Source: Escherichia phage vB_Eco_SLUR76
Length of the DNA stretch: 60,165 nt
Direction: 5' to 3' (one strand)
Sequence record: LR025195.1
Of the stretch, positions 1 through 60,165 are shown piece by piece (the first letter of the stretch is position 1; the number at the start of each line of letters is the position of its first letter). The position numbers were made by a program, and so were the translations under genes. A model generated the notes under the pieces. The model saw only the letters and a list, made by a program, of their open reading frames with translations, ran no database searches and had not been told where the DNA came from.

Positions 1-127
1 AGCAGGAGGAAGAGAAAGATATGAAACATGCAAAAGCTGCCACGCAGGTTTCTGAAATCAAAATTGAAGAGCCAAAAGCTGCCGCGCCAAAACAGGATGC
101 AAAAGCTGCTCGCTGTGATTTCAAAAA
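1..127. repeat. Terminal overlap: bases 1..127 are identical to 60039..60165 (circular closure or terminal redundancy)
   Basis: Direct comparison of the first and last 127 bases of the window shows them to be identical. Confidence 0.9.
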
Positions 128-311
128 TGGCGCTCGCAAGCCTCTGAAAGGAAAAACCGCCGAAGTGTGGGCAATGGGCGACAAACTTTTAGCCGAACTG
201 GGCCGCACGCCGGAGCTGAAAGAAATGAAAGCGGCAATGCCTTCTTACAACGGGACAACGGTCGCCATTCAGTTTTATGCTTGGAGAAAGTTCCACGGAC
301 TGGACGCATAA
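1..311 (+). CDS. Hypothetical protein, 3' part of a junction-spanning CDS (59735..60038 joined to 1..311, about 204 aa)
   Basis: The ORF at 59735 reads in frame through the repeated end into 21..311; stop TAA at 309..311. Confidence 0.5.
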   Translation, partial: QEEEKDMKHAKAATQVSEIKIEEPKAAAPKQDAKAARCDFKNGARKPLKGKTAEVWAMGDKLLAELGRTPELKEMKAAMPSYNGTTVAIQFYAWRKFHGLDA

Positions 312-349
312 TCTATAACCACATCAACCAACGGGCTTTCTGCGGGAGC

Positions 350-685
350 CTATTTAAGATAAAGATTCTCAATCATGTCGTTCTTCGGGTCGTTAATATA
401 CTTCCCGAAGACAGCTTTCTTACCCTGCGCCCCGTTAAACATTTCGTATATAATACGCGCCCGTAAGACTTTACGGTTTTCCCCACCGCAAATTGGAGCA
501 ACACTAATCTTAGCTTGCAGATGTGCAGCGCATATATCCTTAGCCTCATCACCTTTAGATATGCCATATTTTTTAAAAGACTTCTTCCAGAATAGTTCTC
601 CGTCGCGGTATTCAAAATACCTATTCCAATTAGGTTCCTTCTTCCACCAGTGCTTTTCATAATCCCATTCAAGACTCATAGTCAT
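350..685 (-). CDS. HNH-AP2 endonuclease-like protein, degenerate and truncated paralog of 53272..53763
   Basis: N-terminus RDGELFWKKS and RARIIYEMFNG align with DGKLFWKTS and RHRIVWEMHNG of the intact HNH gene, but the IDHINH histidines and the AP2 region are missing. Confidence 0.45.
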   Translation of the reverse strand: MTMSLEWDYEKHWWKKEPNWNRYFEYRDGELFWKKSFKKYGISKGDEAKDICAAHLQAKISVAPICGGENRKVLRARIIYEMFNGAQGKKAVFGKYINDPKNDMIENLYLK

Positions 686-1059
686 TCCTCTTGATGATTT
701 AATTTGCGCGCGCTACGTAAGACAGCCTCCTTAGACTTGTTATTGCGGGAGCAGCTACCCGTGTTACCGGACCGCTGCAATAACTCCTCTCTGCCTTAAC
801 GCAGATTATAGCTTGATATACCTTCCGATCACAACAGTTCAATAAATTTCCCTCAAAAGCACTTGACTTCTCATTTTTGATCTGCATCCGTTCAGGTTTA
901 TTAAAATTTATAGAGTTTATATTGTGAAGTATAAACAATCACATAATACCAATAGGTACTATATACAATAATAATAAATCCTTATTTTATATATATTTAT
1001 AGTTATTATTAATATTAGTTTAATTAGGTTTATTTTAGTTAGTTGACTGAAAGTTTATA

Positions 1060-1356
1060 AGTTTATAGGGGTATACACCAAATTTTTTAGAATCATAGTA
1101 TAGGGAGTAGGGTATAGGTATTTGCCATTGTTATACCCTAGTACCCCTATCTTTAGTTTTTCTGCGGGGGCGCAAGGGGTAAACTAAAACTATAAATTTA
1201 GAAAGCTACATAGGGAGGGTATTTTATAGGGTGTTTATAGGGTTACCCTATACGAACCCTGTATTGCACCCTATACCTATTGTTTTACAATAACTCTTGC
1301 AATTTAATAGGGAGGGTCTTACCATAGGGTTAAGGCAATACCCTATCGGAGGCTAT
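1060..1356. repeat. AT-rich non-coding region with at least 12 copies of a TAGGG / CCCTA motif in both orientations (candidate origin or regulatory array)
   Basis: Repeated tataggg, atagggag, tagggt and their complements accctat, ccctatac, seen directly, with no plausible ORF. Confidence 0.6.
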
Positions 1357-2139
1357 ATGAATACAGAGCTGACTAACAATAACGCGGTGGCGGAGGAACA
1401 GCCAACCAGCACTCACTCCAATGTGGTTAAGGATTTGTGCTTCGCAGCCTGGGTCGTGCAAGCGTGTTCCCGTATTCGCGGAAAGGTGACTAAAGAGCAG
1501 GCTCTTAAGATGGTTGAGGATTATTTTGATAGTGCACAAGATGTGACGCCTAAAGTTAAACACGGAAAAGCTGCTGCAAAAAAAGAAAACCCTGAGCGTG
1601 ATAAGTTTATGGCATGGGTGCGCGAACAAATAAAGGAAAAAGAAAACCGTGAACTTACAACTAAAGAAGTTGCAAAGTTCCGCGGCAAGTTTGACTACTA
1701 CAAACGGTTTGGACCACAAGCGCCATATGAGAATGCTTTTAAGGTTTGCCAAACAAAGGATAAAAATAATGAGTCTGCGTTTAAAGTTTGGCTTGCCAAG
1801 AATGAGCGTGCGAAGGGTGAGCAGTTAACGGAAAAAGAAATCACATCTCTTAAAAATAGATGGTATTCGCGGCCGGATAAAAACGTGGAACCCTCAATTT
1901 GGGATAATCGTGGACGTTGGCCTGTTTGCAAGCTCAAGGCATATGGCAACGCCGCTACGGGCATAGAGGTTGCACTAGCTGGTGGAAACTTTTTTCCATG
2001 GCAAGCATTTCATGACATCACGAAGGCTCAGCAACGCCTTGGACAATTGGACGAATGGATGATAAATCTACGGGAAGGTCGCACTCCTGAAGAGGTATAT
2101 GAATGCGTTATGGAGTACGCAAACTTTGCCGCGCAATAA
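1357..2139 (+). CDS. Hypothetical protein
   Basis: Long ORF; ATG at 1357 preceded by RBS atcggagg. Confidence 0.6.
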   Translation: MNTELTNNNAVAEEQPTSTHSNVVKDLCFAAWVVQACSRIRGKVTKEQALKMVEDYFDSAQDVTPKVKHGKAAAKKENPERDKFMAWVREQIKEKENRELTTKEVAKFRGKFDYYKRFGPQAPYENAFKVCQTKDKNNESAFKVWLAKNERAKGEQLTEKEITSLKNRWYSRPDKNVEPSIWDNRGRWPVCKLKAYGNAATGIEVALAGGNFFPWQAFHDITKAQQRLGQLDEWMINLREGRTPEEVYECVMEYANFAAQ

Positions 2140-2200: not shown

Positions 2201-2404
2201 ATGACTGCACAAGACGAGTTTGATGCTAAATATATAACCACATCAGAGATTGAAGCCCGTTTCGGGGTTAGTCGTTATAAGTTGTGCCGCAATCGAGATA
2301 TACTTCCTGGAGCTGTTCGTATCGCTAACGTATTTGTATACGTGCGCGAAATTGCTGAGCCAGCACTTATAGCAATGCAAGGCGATAAGCGTCGGAGGTC
2401 ATGA
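2201..2404 (+). CDS. Small hypothetical protein, possible AlpA-like HTH DNA-binding protein
   Basis: RBS aaaggagg; sequence TSEIEARFGVSRYKL resembles a helix-turn-helix. Confidence 0.4.
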   Translation: MTAQDEFDAKYITTSEIEARFGVSRYKLCRNRDILPGAVRIANVFVYVREIAEPALIAMQGDKRRRS

Positions 2405-2616
2405 TGGTACTTAGTGAAGTTGGACAAAATAAGCTTCGGGAGCAGGGATGGTTCATTGGGCATTATATGCATTACCGCACAGCTTATATTATGGTTGCAG
2501 GGACTATTATTTACCTTGGACATTATGAGAGCTATCTGGATGCAGAGAAAGTGATCAACGAGACTAAGAAGCACTTATTTGCTGCTATCGGTTGTGCAAT
2601 GGTTAGTTCTCAGTAA
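2401..2616 (+). CDS. Hypothetical protein
   Basis: ORF with overlapping start ATGATG after RBS ggagg. Confidence 0.5.
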   Translation: MMVLSEVGQNKLREQGWFIGHYMHYRTAYIMVAGTIIYLGHYESYLDAEKVINETKKHLFAAIGCAMVSSQ

Positions 2617-2627
2617 AAGGATAAGTC

Positions 2628-4970
2628 ATGGAACTGTTTCCCGCTGAAATTAAAGCTTTCCCACAATGGGCGGTCGCCGATGCGGACAAAAAGCCGCTGG
2701 TATGGGATAGCGATATTGGACGTTTGATGGCGGCGGACGTTACCGATCCGGATATGCTTATGACGTTTGAAGCTGCCAAAGGTTGCGCCGCTCATTTCAA
2801 TAAACCTTATATTGGATTCGTGCTTACTGCACAAGACCCGTTCACCTGCATCGACCTGGATGTGAAGAACGCAACCAATGAACCTGATCCCAAGAAACAC
2901 ACGACGCCAGAGCAGTTGCGCCGCTTCGAACAGATCATGACTGCGTTCGATACTTACACCGAAGTAAGTCGCTCAGGCCTGGGTGTCCACCTGTGGTTAA
3001 GAGGTAACATCGGTAAAGGTCGTCGACGTGATGGTGTCGAGGTTTATAGTCAGGAGCGTTTTATTATCTGCACGGGCAATCCTGTCTACAACAAACCAGT
3101 TGCAGAACGTGATCATTACCTTACTATGCTTGTGAATGAAATTGATCTTCAGCGCAAGACATATGAAATTGAACTGGTAGAAAAAGATCCGGTAGAAGAT
3201 GATGCAACTATTCATCAGCGCGCACTTGAAGCAGATAACGGCGATAAGTATGCGCGGTTATTCAATGGTGAATGGGTTGAAATGGGTTTCCCTTCCCAGT
3301 CTGAAGCAGATCTTGCCCTTATTTCTATGTATGCATTCTACACGGAAAGTAATGAGCAATGTCGTCGTCTGTTCCGTTATAGCGCACTGGGCAAACGTGA
3401 GAAGGCTAATAAGAACAATGTTCATATTGACCGTTGCTTGCGCATGTGTCGCGGTCGCATGGAGCGTGAGCGCATTGCCCAGGAAAACGTAGCGGCGCTG
3501 GCGCGGGATTATGCTGCCCGTATGCAAGCGGCACACAGTGCAATGCAGCAGGTAGCGGAAATGCCCGTAACTGTTGAAACAACACAGGGGCAGACAGTAG
3601 TTGCAGAAAGTACATCTATTGATGCAACCGCTATTGACTGGCCGCCGGGACTTGCTGGGGAGCTTGCGAAGTACATCTACAAAGCATCCGTCCGACCAGT
3701 GAAAGAAATTTCTATTGTGACAGCACTAGGATTTATGGCTGGTGTATGCGGGAAGGTTTGGCAGATTCCACAATCGGGTCTTAATGGATATTTCGTCCTT
3801 ATTGCTCGTTCTGGTGTTGGTAAAGAAACGTTGAACAGTGGGCTATCTAATATAGTTAGCCAGCTTCAGGAACCGTTTCCGCAGATTCATAGCTTTGTAT
3901 CCTTTGACCGATGCGCTTCCGGCTCCGCACTGCGTAAATCTTTTGCGGACAAACAATCTTTTATCAACTTGAACGGTGAGTTTGGTAAGATTATTAAAGC
4001 AATGGCTACGGCGCCAGCAGGTTCACCGATGCAAAGCTTCAAGAACGACCTTACCGATGTTTATCAAAAGTCCGGTCAGATGTCTATTGTCGGTGGTATG
4101 TCTTATTCTGATAAGGCTAATAATACGGAAGCTCAACAAGGTGTGGCCTATAGCATCATGGGCGAAACGACACCGGATACGTTCTTTGAAGCATTAACCC
4201 GTGAAATGATGGAGGATGGTTTCTTATCCCGTTTCCATGTTGTCCGCTATGAAGGGGATCGACCGCCTTTAAACAAGAACCAGCAGACTACAATGGATCA
4301 GCATTTGCGGGATATGGTGTGTCATCTTGTTAACCACACCTTAGTCGCAATGGCAAAGCATCAAAGTATTGAAGTGCAGTTTAGCCCGGATGCGGAAGCA
4401 TTATGCGATCAGTTTAACGATGAATGTGACCGTAATATTAACGCAACCAAAGACGAAGCGATCCGTCAGCCGTGGAACCGTGCGCACCTGAAGGTGTTAC
4501 GTCTATCCGCCCTGTTAGCTGTGGGAGAAAACTGGATCAATCCGGTTGTGCAGACCTATCATGTTCAATGGGCCTTGGACTTTGTGCGTCATGGACAGGA
4601 TATCATTATGAAGGAATGGCATAGTGGGGGTATTGGTACTAATGACGAAGCTCGTATCCGTACTATGTGCCAGGTTTGTGTCAATTATCTAACTAAAGAT
4701 TGGGTGAAAGTTAAACGTGTAGATCTGCGTAAGGAAGGAATTATCACGAGGGGTGATATTACTACTCGTCTTGCAAGTAAGTCCGCGTTTAAAAACTATC
4801 ACCACGGATTGTCCGCAGCAATTGAGTCTACGATCAAGGAGATGGTTGCTATGGGTGCTCTTGTTCCGGTAACACGGGAGGAGACTATCAAACTGGGATT
4901 CACTGGCGCAGCTTGGCGCATTACGCAAGATGTTGAAGGTATTATAGCAAACTTAGGAGAAGAGGAATAA
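2628..4970 (+). CDS. Primase-polymerase (archaeo-eukaryotic primase fold) with C-terminal P-loop/helicase-like domain
   Basis: AEP motifs CIDLDV (DxD), SGLGVHLW (SGxGxH), ERFIICTG; later P-loop-like ARSGVGKET; 780 aa. Confidence 0.6.
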   Translation: MELFPAEIKAFPQWAVADADKKPLVWDSDIGRLMAADVTDPDMLMTFEAAKGCAAHFNKPYIGFVLTAQDPFTCIDLDVKNATNEPDPKKHTTPEQLRRFEQIMTAFDTYTEVSRSGLGVHLWLRGNIGKGRRRDGVEVYSQERFIICTGNPVYNKPVAERDHYLTMLVNEIDLQRKTYEIELVEKDPVEDDATIHQRALEADNGDKYARLFNGEWVEMGFPSQSEADLALISMYAFYTESNEQCRRLFRYSALGKREKANKNNVHIDRCLRMCRGRMERERIAQENVAALARDYAARMQAAHSAMQQVAEMPVTVETTQGQTVVAESTSIDATAIDWPPGLAGELAKYIYKASVRPVKEISIVTALGFMAGVCGKVWQIPQSGLNGYFVLIARSGVGKETLNSGLSNIVSQLQEPFPQIHSFVSFDRCASGSALRKSFADKQSFINLNGEFGKIIKAMATAPAGSPMQSFKNDLTDVYQKSGQMSIVGGMSYSDKANNTEAQQGVAYSIMGETTPDTFFEALTREMMEDGFLSRFHVVRYEGDRPPLNKNQQTTMDQHLRDMVCHLVNHTLVAMAKHQSIEVQFSPDAEALCDQFNDECDRNINATKDEAIRQPWNRAHLKVLRLSALLAVGENWINPVVQTYHVQWALDFVRHGQDIIMKEWHSGGIGTNDEARIRTMCQVCVNYLTKDWVKVKRVDLRKEGIITRGDITTRLASKSAFKNYHHGLSAAIESTIKEMVAMGALVPVTREETIKLGFTGAAWRITQDVEGIIANLGEEE

Positions 4971-53027: not shown

Positions 53028-53297
53028 TTATCTATTAAGGAATGCCAGAACGCAGGACTTAACGAATAATGAGCCCCCTTCGCCAAGATACTTTTCTGAA
53101 TATACTGAGTAATCGTTAACCCCATCCCAAAAGATAACAAGGCCATTAGTTTGCAGACTATCAATAATCGCAATAGCTACCTCCTCACAATTAGTGAAGA
53201 AAATATCATCGTTCACTTGGACATAGTTATGAAAATCTTTTATCCTCCAGTTTAATTGTGAAGGTAAAACATCAAAAACTCTTACGTTCAGTTCCAT
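53028..53297 (-). CDS. Hypothetical protein
   Basis: ORF between the HNH gene and the lysis cassette; weak RBS. Confidence 0.35.
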   Translation of the reverse strand: MELNVRVFDVLPSQLNWRIKDFHNYVQVNDDIFFTNCEEVAIAIIDSLQTNGLVIFWDGVNDYSVYSEKYLGEGGSLFVKSCVLAFLNR

Positions 53298-53763
53298 GGT
53301 TCTCGTGGTATTCATATACAATCTCAGCATTTTTACGAGCATTGACGGCATCTTCAAAATTAATAAAAGAGCCAAGTCTTACTTGACCGACCTGTGTATT
53401 AATATAAGCTATCCATCTTTTATTCCTTTTGTGATAGCAAACACCAGTAATACCAGACTTATTAAGCTTAGATCTGGTTACGTTCCTATTATTCAATGTA
53501 CTTGTAACTAATCTAAGATTCTCTATCCTATCATCTCCAGGAACGTGATTAATATGATCTATTTGCATATCTTTGGGAATAGGACCATTATGCATTTCCC
53601 ATACTATACGATGCCTTAGATAGAAACTACAACCGCATCGTATTTTGACGTAACCCCTCTTTGTAGCATGACCAGCAAGTGCTCCTGGTATAACTCTACC
53701 ACCTCTAGAAGTTTTCCAGAACAGCTTTCCATCCAAATAAGTGAATATGGAAGACCATTCCAT
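53272..53763 (-). CDS. HNH homing endonuclease with AP2-like DNA-binding domain
   Basis: HNH motif DHINHVPGDDRIENL; C-terminal ITGVCYHKRNKRWIAYI...EDAVNARKNAE resembles an AP2 domain. Confidence 0.75.
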   Translation of the reverse strand: MEWSSIFTYLDGKLFWKTSRGGRVIPGALAGHATKRGYVKIRCGCSFYLRHRIVWEMHNGPIPKDMQIDHINHVPGDDRIENLRLVTSTLNNRNVTRSKLNKSGITGVCYHKRNKRWIAYINTQVGQVRLGSFINFEDAVNARKNAEIVYEYHENHGTERKSF

Positions 53764-53764
53764 T

Positions 53765-54229
53765 TTAAAAAGCCTCAAATGATATTGTATCAACTCCCAG
53801 GAATGCGCATGTGGTGTGTTTAATTGCCAGCTCAATAGCTTCGCTTGCGCTTGCACCAGCGGCTAATGCACCAGCAGCAAACACACAACCGCTACCCTCA
53901 GATCCCCATCCATCCAGCATGGGCTCGCTCAAAGTACCATCATTATAAATAAAATGGCAAGTACCTTCCGGAGTGACAGCAAGACCGCAAGTTTGCCCGT
54001 AATCATCATCTTTACTGTAAAGTTTAATATCAGGGAACTTAACAGGTTCCGCGCTATTAAAATAACGCAACACCTGATCGGTAAATGCTGTCAAACCGCA
54101 CAAGCCCAGTAAAAACCGTCCACGATGTCCATTCACGCTATGAACTTTCTTATAAGCAGTCACAGCTTCCCCGCGCATAACGCCACGGTCCGCAGCTAAT
54201 ACTTTTCCATCAAACGCAATTGTGGTCAT
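53765..54229 (-). CDS. Ntn-hydrolase peptidase, HslV / proteasome beta-subunit-like
   Basis: N-terminus MTTIAFDGKVLAADRG matches the HslV TTI N-terminal nucleophile; GSEGSG glycine loop; RBS aggaaag. Confidence 0.5.
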   Translation of the reverse strand: MTTIAFDGKVLAADRGVMRGEAVTAYKKVHSVNGHRGRFLLGLCGLTAFTDQVLRYFNSAEPVKFPDIKLYSKDDDYGQTCGLAVTPEGTCHFIYNDGTLSEPMLDGWGSEGSGCVFAAGALAAGASASEAIELAIKHTTCAFLGVDTISFEAF

Positions 54230-59734: not shown

Positions 59735-60165
59735 ATGTCTAAAGTAACTCACCGCGAACAGGATAAAATGCGCTACACCATGAAAACGAATGCACGCCGT
59801 GCCCTTAAGACCCGTTGGGGTCAGGTTGCACGCGACGCACACGAACAGCTTATCCATCAGGACGAGGTCGGTTTTTACATCGTCGAGAAGGAAGTGCTTC
59901 AGGTGCTGCGCGACCATAAAAAAGCGCAACAGCCGGAGCAGAAAGTACCGGCACCGACCGCCGCGCCAGCTGCCAGCGTCTCGGTACTGCGCCCGATGGT
60001 AAATCCGGAAATCGTCAAAAGCTGCCTCGAAGCTCTGGAGCAGGAGGAAGAGAAAGATATGAAACATGCAAAAGCTGCCACGCAGGTTTCTGAAATCAAA
60101 ATTGAAGAGCCAAAAGCTGCCGCGCCAAAACAGGATGCAAAAGCTGCTCGCTGTGATTTCAAAAA
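59735..60165 (+). CDS. Hypothetical protein, 5' part of the junction-spanning CDS (continues into 1..311)
   Basis: RBS aaaggag then ATG; frame runs through the window end into the repeated start. Confidence 0.55.
   Translation, partial: MSKVTHREQDKMRYTMKTNARRALKTRWGQVARDAHEQLIHQDEVGFYIVEKEVLQVLRDHKKAQQPEQKVPAPTAAPAASVSVLRPMVNPEIVKSCLEALEQEEEKDMKHAKAATQVSEIKIEEPKAAAPKQDAKAARCDFK
60039..60165. repeat. Second copy of the 127-bp terminal overlap
   Basis: Same as 1..127; the reading frame of CDS 59735.. continues into 21..311. Confidence 0.9.

Follow-up and report, generated by a model that had tools for sequence, protein, structure and literature searches.

Homing endonucleases of the HNH_3-AP2 type (His-Me group 2, I-HmuI type; PF13392 plus PF00847; PHROG 99) carry an AP2 domain, which confers specificity in this class of enzymes. 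Degenerate remnants of homing endonucleases gather frameshifts and evolve neutrally. In the His-Me superfamily, the catalytic histidine is located at the end of strand 1 and the metal-binding asparagine or histidine in the first turn of the helix (PMC5714182). In Smad MH1 and other dead His-Me fingers (groups 16 and 21), the catalytic histidine has been lost and binding has been retained (PMC5714182). CapR of the PLE satellite and Odn of phage ICP1 are domesticated derivatives of homing endonucleases that take part in phage-satellite conflicts (PMC10448857 and references therein). Here we describe a small gene of Seuratvirus phages, read in the first-pass annotation as a decaying second copy of an HNH-AP2 homing endonuclease gene, whose product is homologous to the N-terminal approximately 90 residues of the HNH_3-AP2 homing endonucleases.

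DNA sequence and comparison sets

The window, i.e., the whole stretch of 60,165 nucleotides that was analyzed, was 100% identical to the genome of Escherichia phage vB_Eco_SLUR26 (LR025198.1, 60,165 bp; Seuratvirus, Queuovirinae) with an offset of 2 nt, and represented a whole Seuratvirus genome. Positions 1..127 were the same as 60039..60165, and this identity of 127 nt at both termini is an assembly k-mer overlap from a circular assembly. The window thus closes on itself, and the true genome size is 60,038 bp. Only two HNH_3-like genes were present in the window, at 350..679 and 53272..53763. Because the window ends are contiguous, the real spacing of these genes is approximately 6.6 kb; the first-pass annotation had placed them 7 kb apart across the junction. 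The annotated 96-aa ORF at 21..311 corresponded to the C-terminal half of a gene of 204 aa that runs across the window junction.

The short gene was read as DNA at 12 loci, and the layout of its slot was compared in 13 loci. The protein set of the family consisted of 29 distinct sequences in two 90% clusters, 22 of which were aligned. The edges of the cassette carrying the gene were mapped by comparison of SLUR26 with Seurat and CAjan, in which the gene is absent, and with locus L006, in which the gene is present together with a 108-aa gene.

Homology and missing parts of the short gene product

The minus-strand ORF of 111 aa at 350..685 was found as first annotated, and its start was better placed at 679. 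The ATG at 685 is an in-frame upstream start that is missing in some orthologs, and the start common to the orthologs is the ATG at 677..679, giving a protein of 109 aa (MSLEW...). We thus assigned the CDS of a 109-aa, catalytically dead HNH_3-derived protein to 350..679 (−), from the ATG at 677..679 to the TAG at 350..352. The same form is annotated in the GenBank record, under the product name "putative HNH endonuclease."

Comparison of the 109-aa protein with the product of the intact HNH-AP2 gene (53272..53856 (−)) by BLASTP gave an E value of 4e-11 with 35% identity over 91 residues. This significant pairwise alignment confirmed the homology claimed in the first-pass annotation, and the N-terminal motifs quoted there (DGELFWKKS and DGKLFWKTS; RARIIYEMFNG and RHRIVWEMHNG) aligned as they had been given. 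When the profile of the short family was compared with 50 HNH-AP2 proteins, hhalign gave a probability of 98.4% and an E value of 5.5e-15 over 85 columns. The 109-aa protein matched PHROG 99, "HNH endonuclease" (E = 4e-6), and this was its sole PHROG match. No Pfam model matched the protein even at E <= 1, the gathering score of HNH_3 (PF13392) not being reached. Searches of NCBIfam and PADLOC with the protein gave no match, and the PDB sequence search with the family profile gave no significant match.

In the 50 HNH-AP2 relatives, Arg52, Gly60, His70, Asn82, and Leu83 were invariant, and His51, Asp69, Asn91, and Asn94 were conserved in at least 90%. The HNH-AP2 residues retained in the 109-aa protein were Arg75, Gly83, Asn105, and Leu106. 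Asp69-His70 of the HNH-AP2 proteins was replaced by Gly92-Lys93, which was invariant in all 22 aligned family sequences, and His51 was replaced by Ala74. The C-terminus of the 109-aa protein (...IENLYLK) lay directly past the second beta-strand. Because the protein stops there, the core helix with Asn91 and Asn94 and the entire AP2 part are missing and have no counterpart in the 109-aa protein. The loss of the catalytic histidine and the AP2 domain, as claimed in the first-pass annotation, was thus verified and went further, since the core helix was also gone. There was no AP2-coding remnant downstream of the ORF, which stops at the cassette edge, because resident DNA begins at the stop codon.

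In comparison with the HNH-AP2 proteins, the family had two specific additions: a Trp-rich N-terminal extension of 15 residues and a variable internal loop. A zinc site in the inserted loop was considered and rejected, since the Cys and His residues of the loop were not conserved across the family. The pI of the 109-aa protein was 9.3, as compared with 9.6 for the same region of the active enzyme, so the protein was not more basic. These comparisons established that the 109-aa protein descends from an HNH_3 nuclease domain and that it has none of the elements required for one-metal catalysis. The name "putative HNH endonuclease" needs correcting.

Predicted fold

The AlphaFold2 model of the 109-aa protein had a pLDDT of 88.9 and a pTM of 0.82, and an independent BFVD model of the identical protein agreed with it at a TM of 0.89. 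DSSP assigned beta1 to residues 91-93 and beta2 to residues 106-108, followed by the C-terminus. The model suggested that both beta-strands of the His-Me finger are kept and that the core helix is missing. The fold of the N-terminal beta-sheet domain was kept in the model as in I-HmuI, and I-HmuI (1u3e, chain 1u3e_M) was also the best PDB match by Foldseek (probability 1.00, TM 0.57, 90 columns). The structural neighbors of the model among viral models were all HNH endonucleases.

Distribution and selection

The short gene was present in 2 of approximately 35 related records, and the sole other close copy among 50,697 phage records was that of Dru_SM1, with 82% amino-acid identity. A protein collection of 5.8 billion clusters contained two 90% clusters of the family with 29 distinct sequences. 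An exhaustive HMMER search of 1.84 billion representatives gave one 50% cluster, and the other hits were full-length HNH proteins with E values of at least 1e-5. One metagenome locus was found in the search for a wider family. The IMG/VR scan gave no further family members, and the DNA pattern of the leader described below was not found in viral contigs. The tiny size of the family limits comparative power.

Three metagenomic proteins that were weak matches in this exhaustive search, P0124, P0129, and P0130, had one or two N-terminal HNH_3-like modules without Asp-His, followed by an intact HNH_3-AP2. Identity of the 109-aa protein to these tandem modules was only approximately 27% over the whole module and 51% over one stretch of 35 residues. 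As judged from these sequences, the tandem architecture suggests that the half-domain has repeatedly been put to non-catalytic use.

The 109-aa ORF was kept in all 22 aligned distinct proteins (two of which had been called from an upstream start), its start and stop being identical and no frameshift occurring, and the 330-nt CDS contained neither a stop nor an indel in any of the 12 loci. In these 12 loci, variable sites at codon positions 1, 2, and 3 numbered 30, 15, and 68, respectively. The pairwise Nei-Gojobori dN/dS was 0.06-0.18 at dS of 0.58-2.0 (up to saturation), and the upper 95% bootstrap limits of pN/pS were <= 0.39. The last 21 residues were invariant in the 22 aligned sequences except for one Leu-to-Ile change, and His10 and several acidic residues were invariant in the family. 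There was no conserved overlapping ORF on the other strand or in another frame at the CDS. The term "decaying" used in the first-pass annotation is therefore not appropriate. The low dN/dS, together with the intact ORFs, indicated that the loss of the catalytic parts is old and fixed. The 109-aa gene is an old gene under purifying selection, which keeps it intact in the subset of Seuratviruses that carry it.

The short gene fell into three allelic clades with pS of 0.4-0.7, a greater depth than that of the neighboring 204-aa core gene (pS of 0.14-0.33). Third-position variation was lower at the gene ends, which was at least partly explained by low-degeneracy codons.

The cassette and its slot

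The gene was carried by a cassette of approximately 452 bp, which takes the place of 59 bp present in Seurat. The cassette is a presence/absence polymorphism at a fixed site and is missing from most Seuratviruses. In all 13 loci, the short gene occupied the same slot, convergent with the 204-aa gene, and the space between these two genes held nothing, a 37-aa ORF, a 44-aa ORF, a 160-aa HNH-AP2 gene, or the 108-aa gene.

The left edge of the cassette lay directly past the -10 box of a resident promoter. This promoter, of the sigma70 type (TTGTGA-18 nt-TATAAT; 805..834 (−)), reads into the cassette and is also present in phages without the cassette. In Seurat (L007 2940..2979) and CAjan (L008 2940..2979), the same promoter was antisense to, and directed into, the 3' end of the 108-aa gene. 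An AT-rich region at 900..1300 of the window, flanked by the divergent leftward promoter and by the replication genes that run rightward (primase from 2628), is probably an origin or early control region. PH_ORF76 of PhiDruSM1, a small predicted ORF in the equivalent stretch, is one for which a deletion was not obtainable (bioRxiv 10.1101/2024.04.14.589459).

At the right edge of the cassette, a boundary motif, GGCTCCCGCAGAAAGCCCG, which forms a small hairpin (332..350 (−)), abuts the stop codon of the short gene. The stop codon overlaps the motif TAGGGCTCCCGCAGAAGCCCG and its variants. The motif also flanks the 108-aa gene, and was likewise found upstream of that gene in CAjan, Seurat, and L006. 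Copies of TAGGGCTCCCGCAGAAGCCCG or TAGGAGGGCTGGCCCGG were located at 3394..3415 in CAjan L008, at 3030..3050 and 3576..3600 in Seurat L007, at 903..925 and 1258..1280 in L006, and at 332..350 in the window. What SLUR26 lacks is exactly the 108-aa gene between the two motif copies. The motif was not a genome-wide repeat, as no other copy was present in the window, and is probably a recombination boundary for the shuffling of gene cassettes in the slot. The first-pass annotation had taken the short copy to mark a homing site. The cassette encodes no functional nuclease, and since its edges lie at a resident promoter and at a recombination-prone motif, recombination exchange fits as well as homing.

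Between the promoter and the Shine-Dalgarno sequence, the 5' leader contained an imperfect hairpin of 92 nt (713..804 (−)). Its predicted folding energy was -36 kcal/mol, but the z-score was only -1.16 and by itself not significant. Over 11 distinct sequences, the hairpin had 33 pairs with 98.6% of cells paired, two compensatory pairs, and several G-U wobbles that pair solely on the sense strand. Identity of the leader among loci was 88-99%, whereas synonymous sites of the CDS differed by 40-70%. No Rfam family matched the leader in a scan of 1..1500, and a covariance model detected no second copy of it in the window and no copy in Seurat or CAjan. Alignment of the start of the leader with the 59 bp at the Seurat site gave a marginal score of 21 against 15.3 +/- 2, which was reached by 10 of 500 shuffles, and homology is not claimed. 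Possible roles of the leader are those of a cis-regulatory RNA, a stabilizing RNA, or a nuclease processing site. The Shine-Dalgarno sequence AAGAGGA (686..692 (−)) was located 6 nt 5' of the conserved ATG. A Shine-Dalgarno-like GGAG or GAGG was kept in 12 of 12 loci, and the 30-nt spacer before the start codon showed only 52-66% identity for most pairs.

Intact HNH-AP2 gene and its relation to the short gene

The intact gene at 53272..53763 (−), located between the endolysin gene and the HslV-like peptidase gene, encodes a free-standing HNH_3-AP2 homing endonuclease of 163 aa. The protein matched Pfam HNH_3 (E = 1e-19) and, weakly, AP2 (E = 0.003), as well as PHROG 99 (E = 2e-58). Its mechanical ORF extended 31 codons further upstream to a GTG at 53856, overlapping the end of the HslV-like peptidase gene (53765..54229); the likely start is the ATG at 53763, which fits the family alignment. 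The gene was found in SLUR26, SHIN8, slur01, and SA126VB, with 98% nucleotide identity in the latter three, and was missing from approximately 29 other Seuratvirus records. In the matched region, SeppeHuegi had a putative homing endonuclease under a different annotation. This presence and absence is the usual pattern for a free-standing homing endonuclease gene. The comparison with related phages proposed in the first-pass annotation thus showed that both genes are polymorphic, the intact gene being present in 4 records and absent from approximately 29, and the short gene being present in 2 of approximately 35.

Identity of the 109-aa protein was 35% to the product of the intact SLUR26 gene versus 38-40% to unrelated metagenomic HNH-AP2 proteins, and was 36% to the enzymes of Jersey-type Salmonella phages. 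There was no sign of duplication within this genome. The description of the short gene as a second copy of the 53-kb gene was consequently not supported; the two genes can be called paralogs only loosely, as members of one superfamily.

Seuratvirus genomes carry several polymorphic HNH-AP2 genes. A 71-aa ORF at 2401..2616 (+), just upstream of the primase gene, was weakly AP2-like (hhalign 51%, no Pfam AP2 match) and may be a genuine decayed remnant. In Dru_SM1, the slot of this ORF holds a full 174-aa HNH-AP2 gene (L004 673..1197 (−)). The first 16 codons of the 174-aa gene were identical in nucleotide sequence to the primase start of SLUR26, and the primase start of Dru_SM1 itself was recoded. 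This pattern at the 5' end of the primase gene looks like the footprint of an endonuclease-gene insertion.

Deletion data and neighboring genes

A knockout library of PhiDruSM1 has been reported by Ojima et al. (bioRxiv 10.1101/2024.04.14.589459, Table S1). The deletion primers for ORF70 of PhiDruSM1 matched the Dru_SM1 ortholog of the 109-aa gene exactly. The ORF70 deletion mutant was obtained, and no defense system was listed as affected (bioRxiv 10.1101/2024.04.14.589459); this deletion left the leader intact. The adjoining ORF71 (44 aa) is Druad1, an anti-Druantia type I factor, and ORF72 is the 204-aa gene, the deletion of which altered sensitivity to BREX I, AVAST III, and qatABCD (bioRxiv 10.1101/2024.04.14.589459). 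The recovery of the mutant and the identity of the neighboring ORF71 and ORF72 indicated that the short gene is dispensable in the laboratory and is located in an accessory counter-defense neighborhood. The 109-aa gene is a reasonable candidate for an accessory function. A paper on the comparative genomics of Seuratvirus contained no statement on this gene (PMC5758909).

Discussion

We consider it probable that 350..679 (−) encodes a functional, catalytically dead accessory protein that was exapted from HNH_3 and probably acts by binding. In the proposed course of events, the nuclease domain of an HNH_3 (I-HmuI-type) homing endonuclease would have given rise to a 109-aa accessory protein that no longer cuts DNA. 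This protein has kept the beta-sheet of the N-terminus and both strands of the His-Me finger, carries Gly-Lys at the sites of the metal-binding Asp and the general-base His, and ends before the helix of the metal-binding Asn, with no AP2 domain. It would be expressed from a host-type promoter beside an AT-rich divergent control region, via a structured leader and its own ribosome-binding site, as a dispensable cassette in a minority of Seuratviruses, in a slot shared with anti-defense genes.

We infer that the 109-aa protein works by binding and not by cutting. The target of binding would most likely be nucleic acid, contacted via the sheet that is retained and the basic, invariant "dead site" segment AVFGKYINDPKNDMIENLYLK. 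Such a mode of action would have parallels in the dead modules that precede an active HNH_3-AP2 in the tandem proteins and in dead His-Me fingers such as Smad MH1, which has kept DNA binding (PMC5714182), and both precedents favor a non-catalytic role. Since the AP2 domain is missing, DNA binding by the 109-aa fragment alone could be weak or non-specific. Candidate roles are those of a regulator near the origin region, a helper or blocker of homing endonucleases, and a counter-defense protein. It is also conceivable, if quite doubtful, that the leader RNA and the dead HNH_3 protein form a two-part module in which, for example, the protein binds its own hairpin or the neighboring origin or promoter DNA, so that the genome is protected from the endonucleases of co-infecting Seuratviruses or a host defense is neutralized. 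If this were true, a stand-alone "anti-nuclease" would have evolved from a nuclease.

A decaying pseudogene, i.e., the remnant of an old homing event that drifts neutrally, would account for the loss of the catalytic residues and the C-terminal half, for the dispensability of the gene in PhiDruSM1, and for its absence from most Seuratviruses. However, the dN/dS of 0.06-0.18 at dS of 0.6-2.0, the pN/pS limits of <= 0.39, the lack of stops and indels in 12 loci, and the 109-aa ORF kept in 22 of 22 aligned proteins, together with a conserved promoter, Shine-Dalgarno sequence, and leader and an essentially invariant stretch of 21 residues at the C-terminus, make this explanation hardly credible. 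It is also highly improbable that the protein is still an active nuclease or nickase with another catalytic arrangement, such as one using Lys93 or the invariant His10, because three elements are missing together, namely the general base, the Asp in front of it, and the entire metal-binding helix, and to our knowledge no His-Me nuclease works without this helix. In favor of such activity are the invariance of His10 and several acidic residues in the family and the replacement of the catalytic His in some His-Me fingers, for instance by Tyr in PacI (PMC5714182). That the selected element is the conserved hairpin RNA, as a small RNA or a cis-regulator, with the ORF riding along, would agree with the high identity of the leader (88-99%) against the 40-70% difference at silent sites, with its compensatory and wobble changes, with its being unique to the cassette, and with its having been left intact by the PhiDruSM1 deletion. 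This explanation seems improbable, as the strong constraint on the ORF at the amino-acid level is not explained by a function of the RNA only and the folding z-score was unremarkable; the hairpin-RNA and protein explanations are compatible and not exclusive.

Two further explanations concern what the protein binds. It might act in trans as a helper or blocker of active HNH-AP2 homing endonucleases, either as an in-trans version of the dead modules found in cis or by occupying target DNA and thereby shielding the genome from the related endonucleases of co-infecting phages. The tandem proteins, in which a dead module precedes an active HNH_3-AP2 and the module boundary of P0129 and P0130 is similar, point in this direction, as do the several polymorphic HNH-AP2 genes of Seuratvirus genomes and the 3 of 13 loci in which a 160-aa HNH gene of the CAjan type directly adjoins the cassette in convergent orientation. 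In contrast, most loci have no adjacent endonuclease gene, and no co-occurrence pattern was established from the partial contigs; we therefore regard this role as unlikely, although it can be entertained tentatively. Alternatively, the product could be a counter-defense or host-takeover protein that binds a host protein, its HNH ancestry being incidental. The islet lies beside Druad1 (anti-Druantia I) and the 204-aa anti-BREX/AVAST/Qat gene, the promoter is a host-type promoter of the early kind, and the distribution is patchy with deep allelic lineages. Against this, the PhiDruSM1 mutant lacking the ortholog was unchanged in its sensitivity to all of the listed defense systems, and there was neither a PADLOC nor an NCBIfam match, so that this role appears rather unlikely.

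The present results are narrow in scope, as they concern one small family in one phage genus and the PhiDruSM1 deletion has no reported phenotype. Within this scope, the exapted, non-catalytic protein that we favor would mean that selection can preserve the nuclease half of a homing endonuclease even after both catalysis and the DNA-recognition domain have been lost.

The closest known systems are the HNH_3-AP2 homing endonucleases, with which the 109-aa protein shares the fold of the I-HmuI N-terminal domain and the occurrence as a small, free-standing, polymorphic cassette between phage genes. It differs from them in the absence of Asp-His, the core helix, the metal-binding Asn, and AP2, in the addition of a 15-residue Trp-rich extension and a loop, and in not being recognized by Pfam HNH_3. 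The modules of P0129 and P0130 end at ENLFL and SNLYL, respectively, which resembles the ENLYL of the 109-aa protein; however, the modules of P0124, P0129, and P0130 are joined in cis to an active HNH_3-AP2, in contrast to the free-standing 109-aa protein. Smad MH1 and the other dead His-Me fingers are likewise derivatives without the catalytic histidine, but they belong to unrelated lineages in eukaryotic proteins. MH1 has the full fold, whereas the helix is deleted in the 109-aa protein, and DNA binding is known for MH1 and putative for the 109-aa protein. With CapR and Odn, the 109-aa protein has in common the theme of homing-endonuclease descendants in a new, non-homing role; CapR and Odn, however, belong to a different nuclease family (T5orf172/GIY-YIG type), their functions have been defined experimentally, and Odn is still a nuclease. 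True pseudogene remnants share with the 109-aa gene a truncated frame, but their frameshifts and neutral evolution are absent from it. A truncated endonuclease is thus not necessarily junk.
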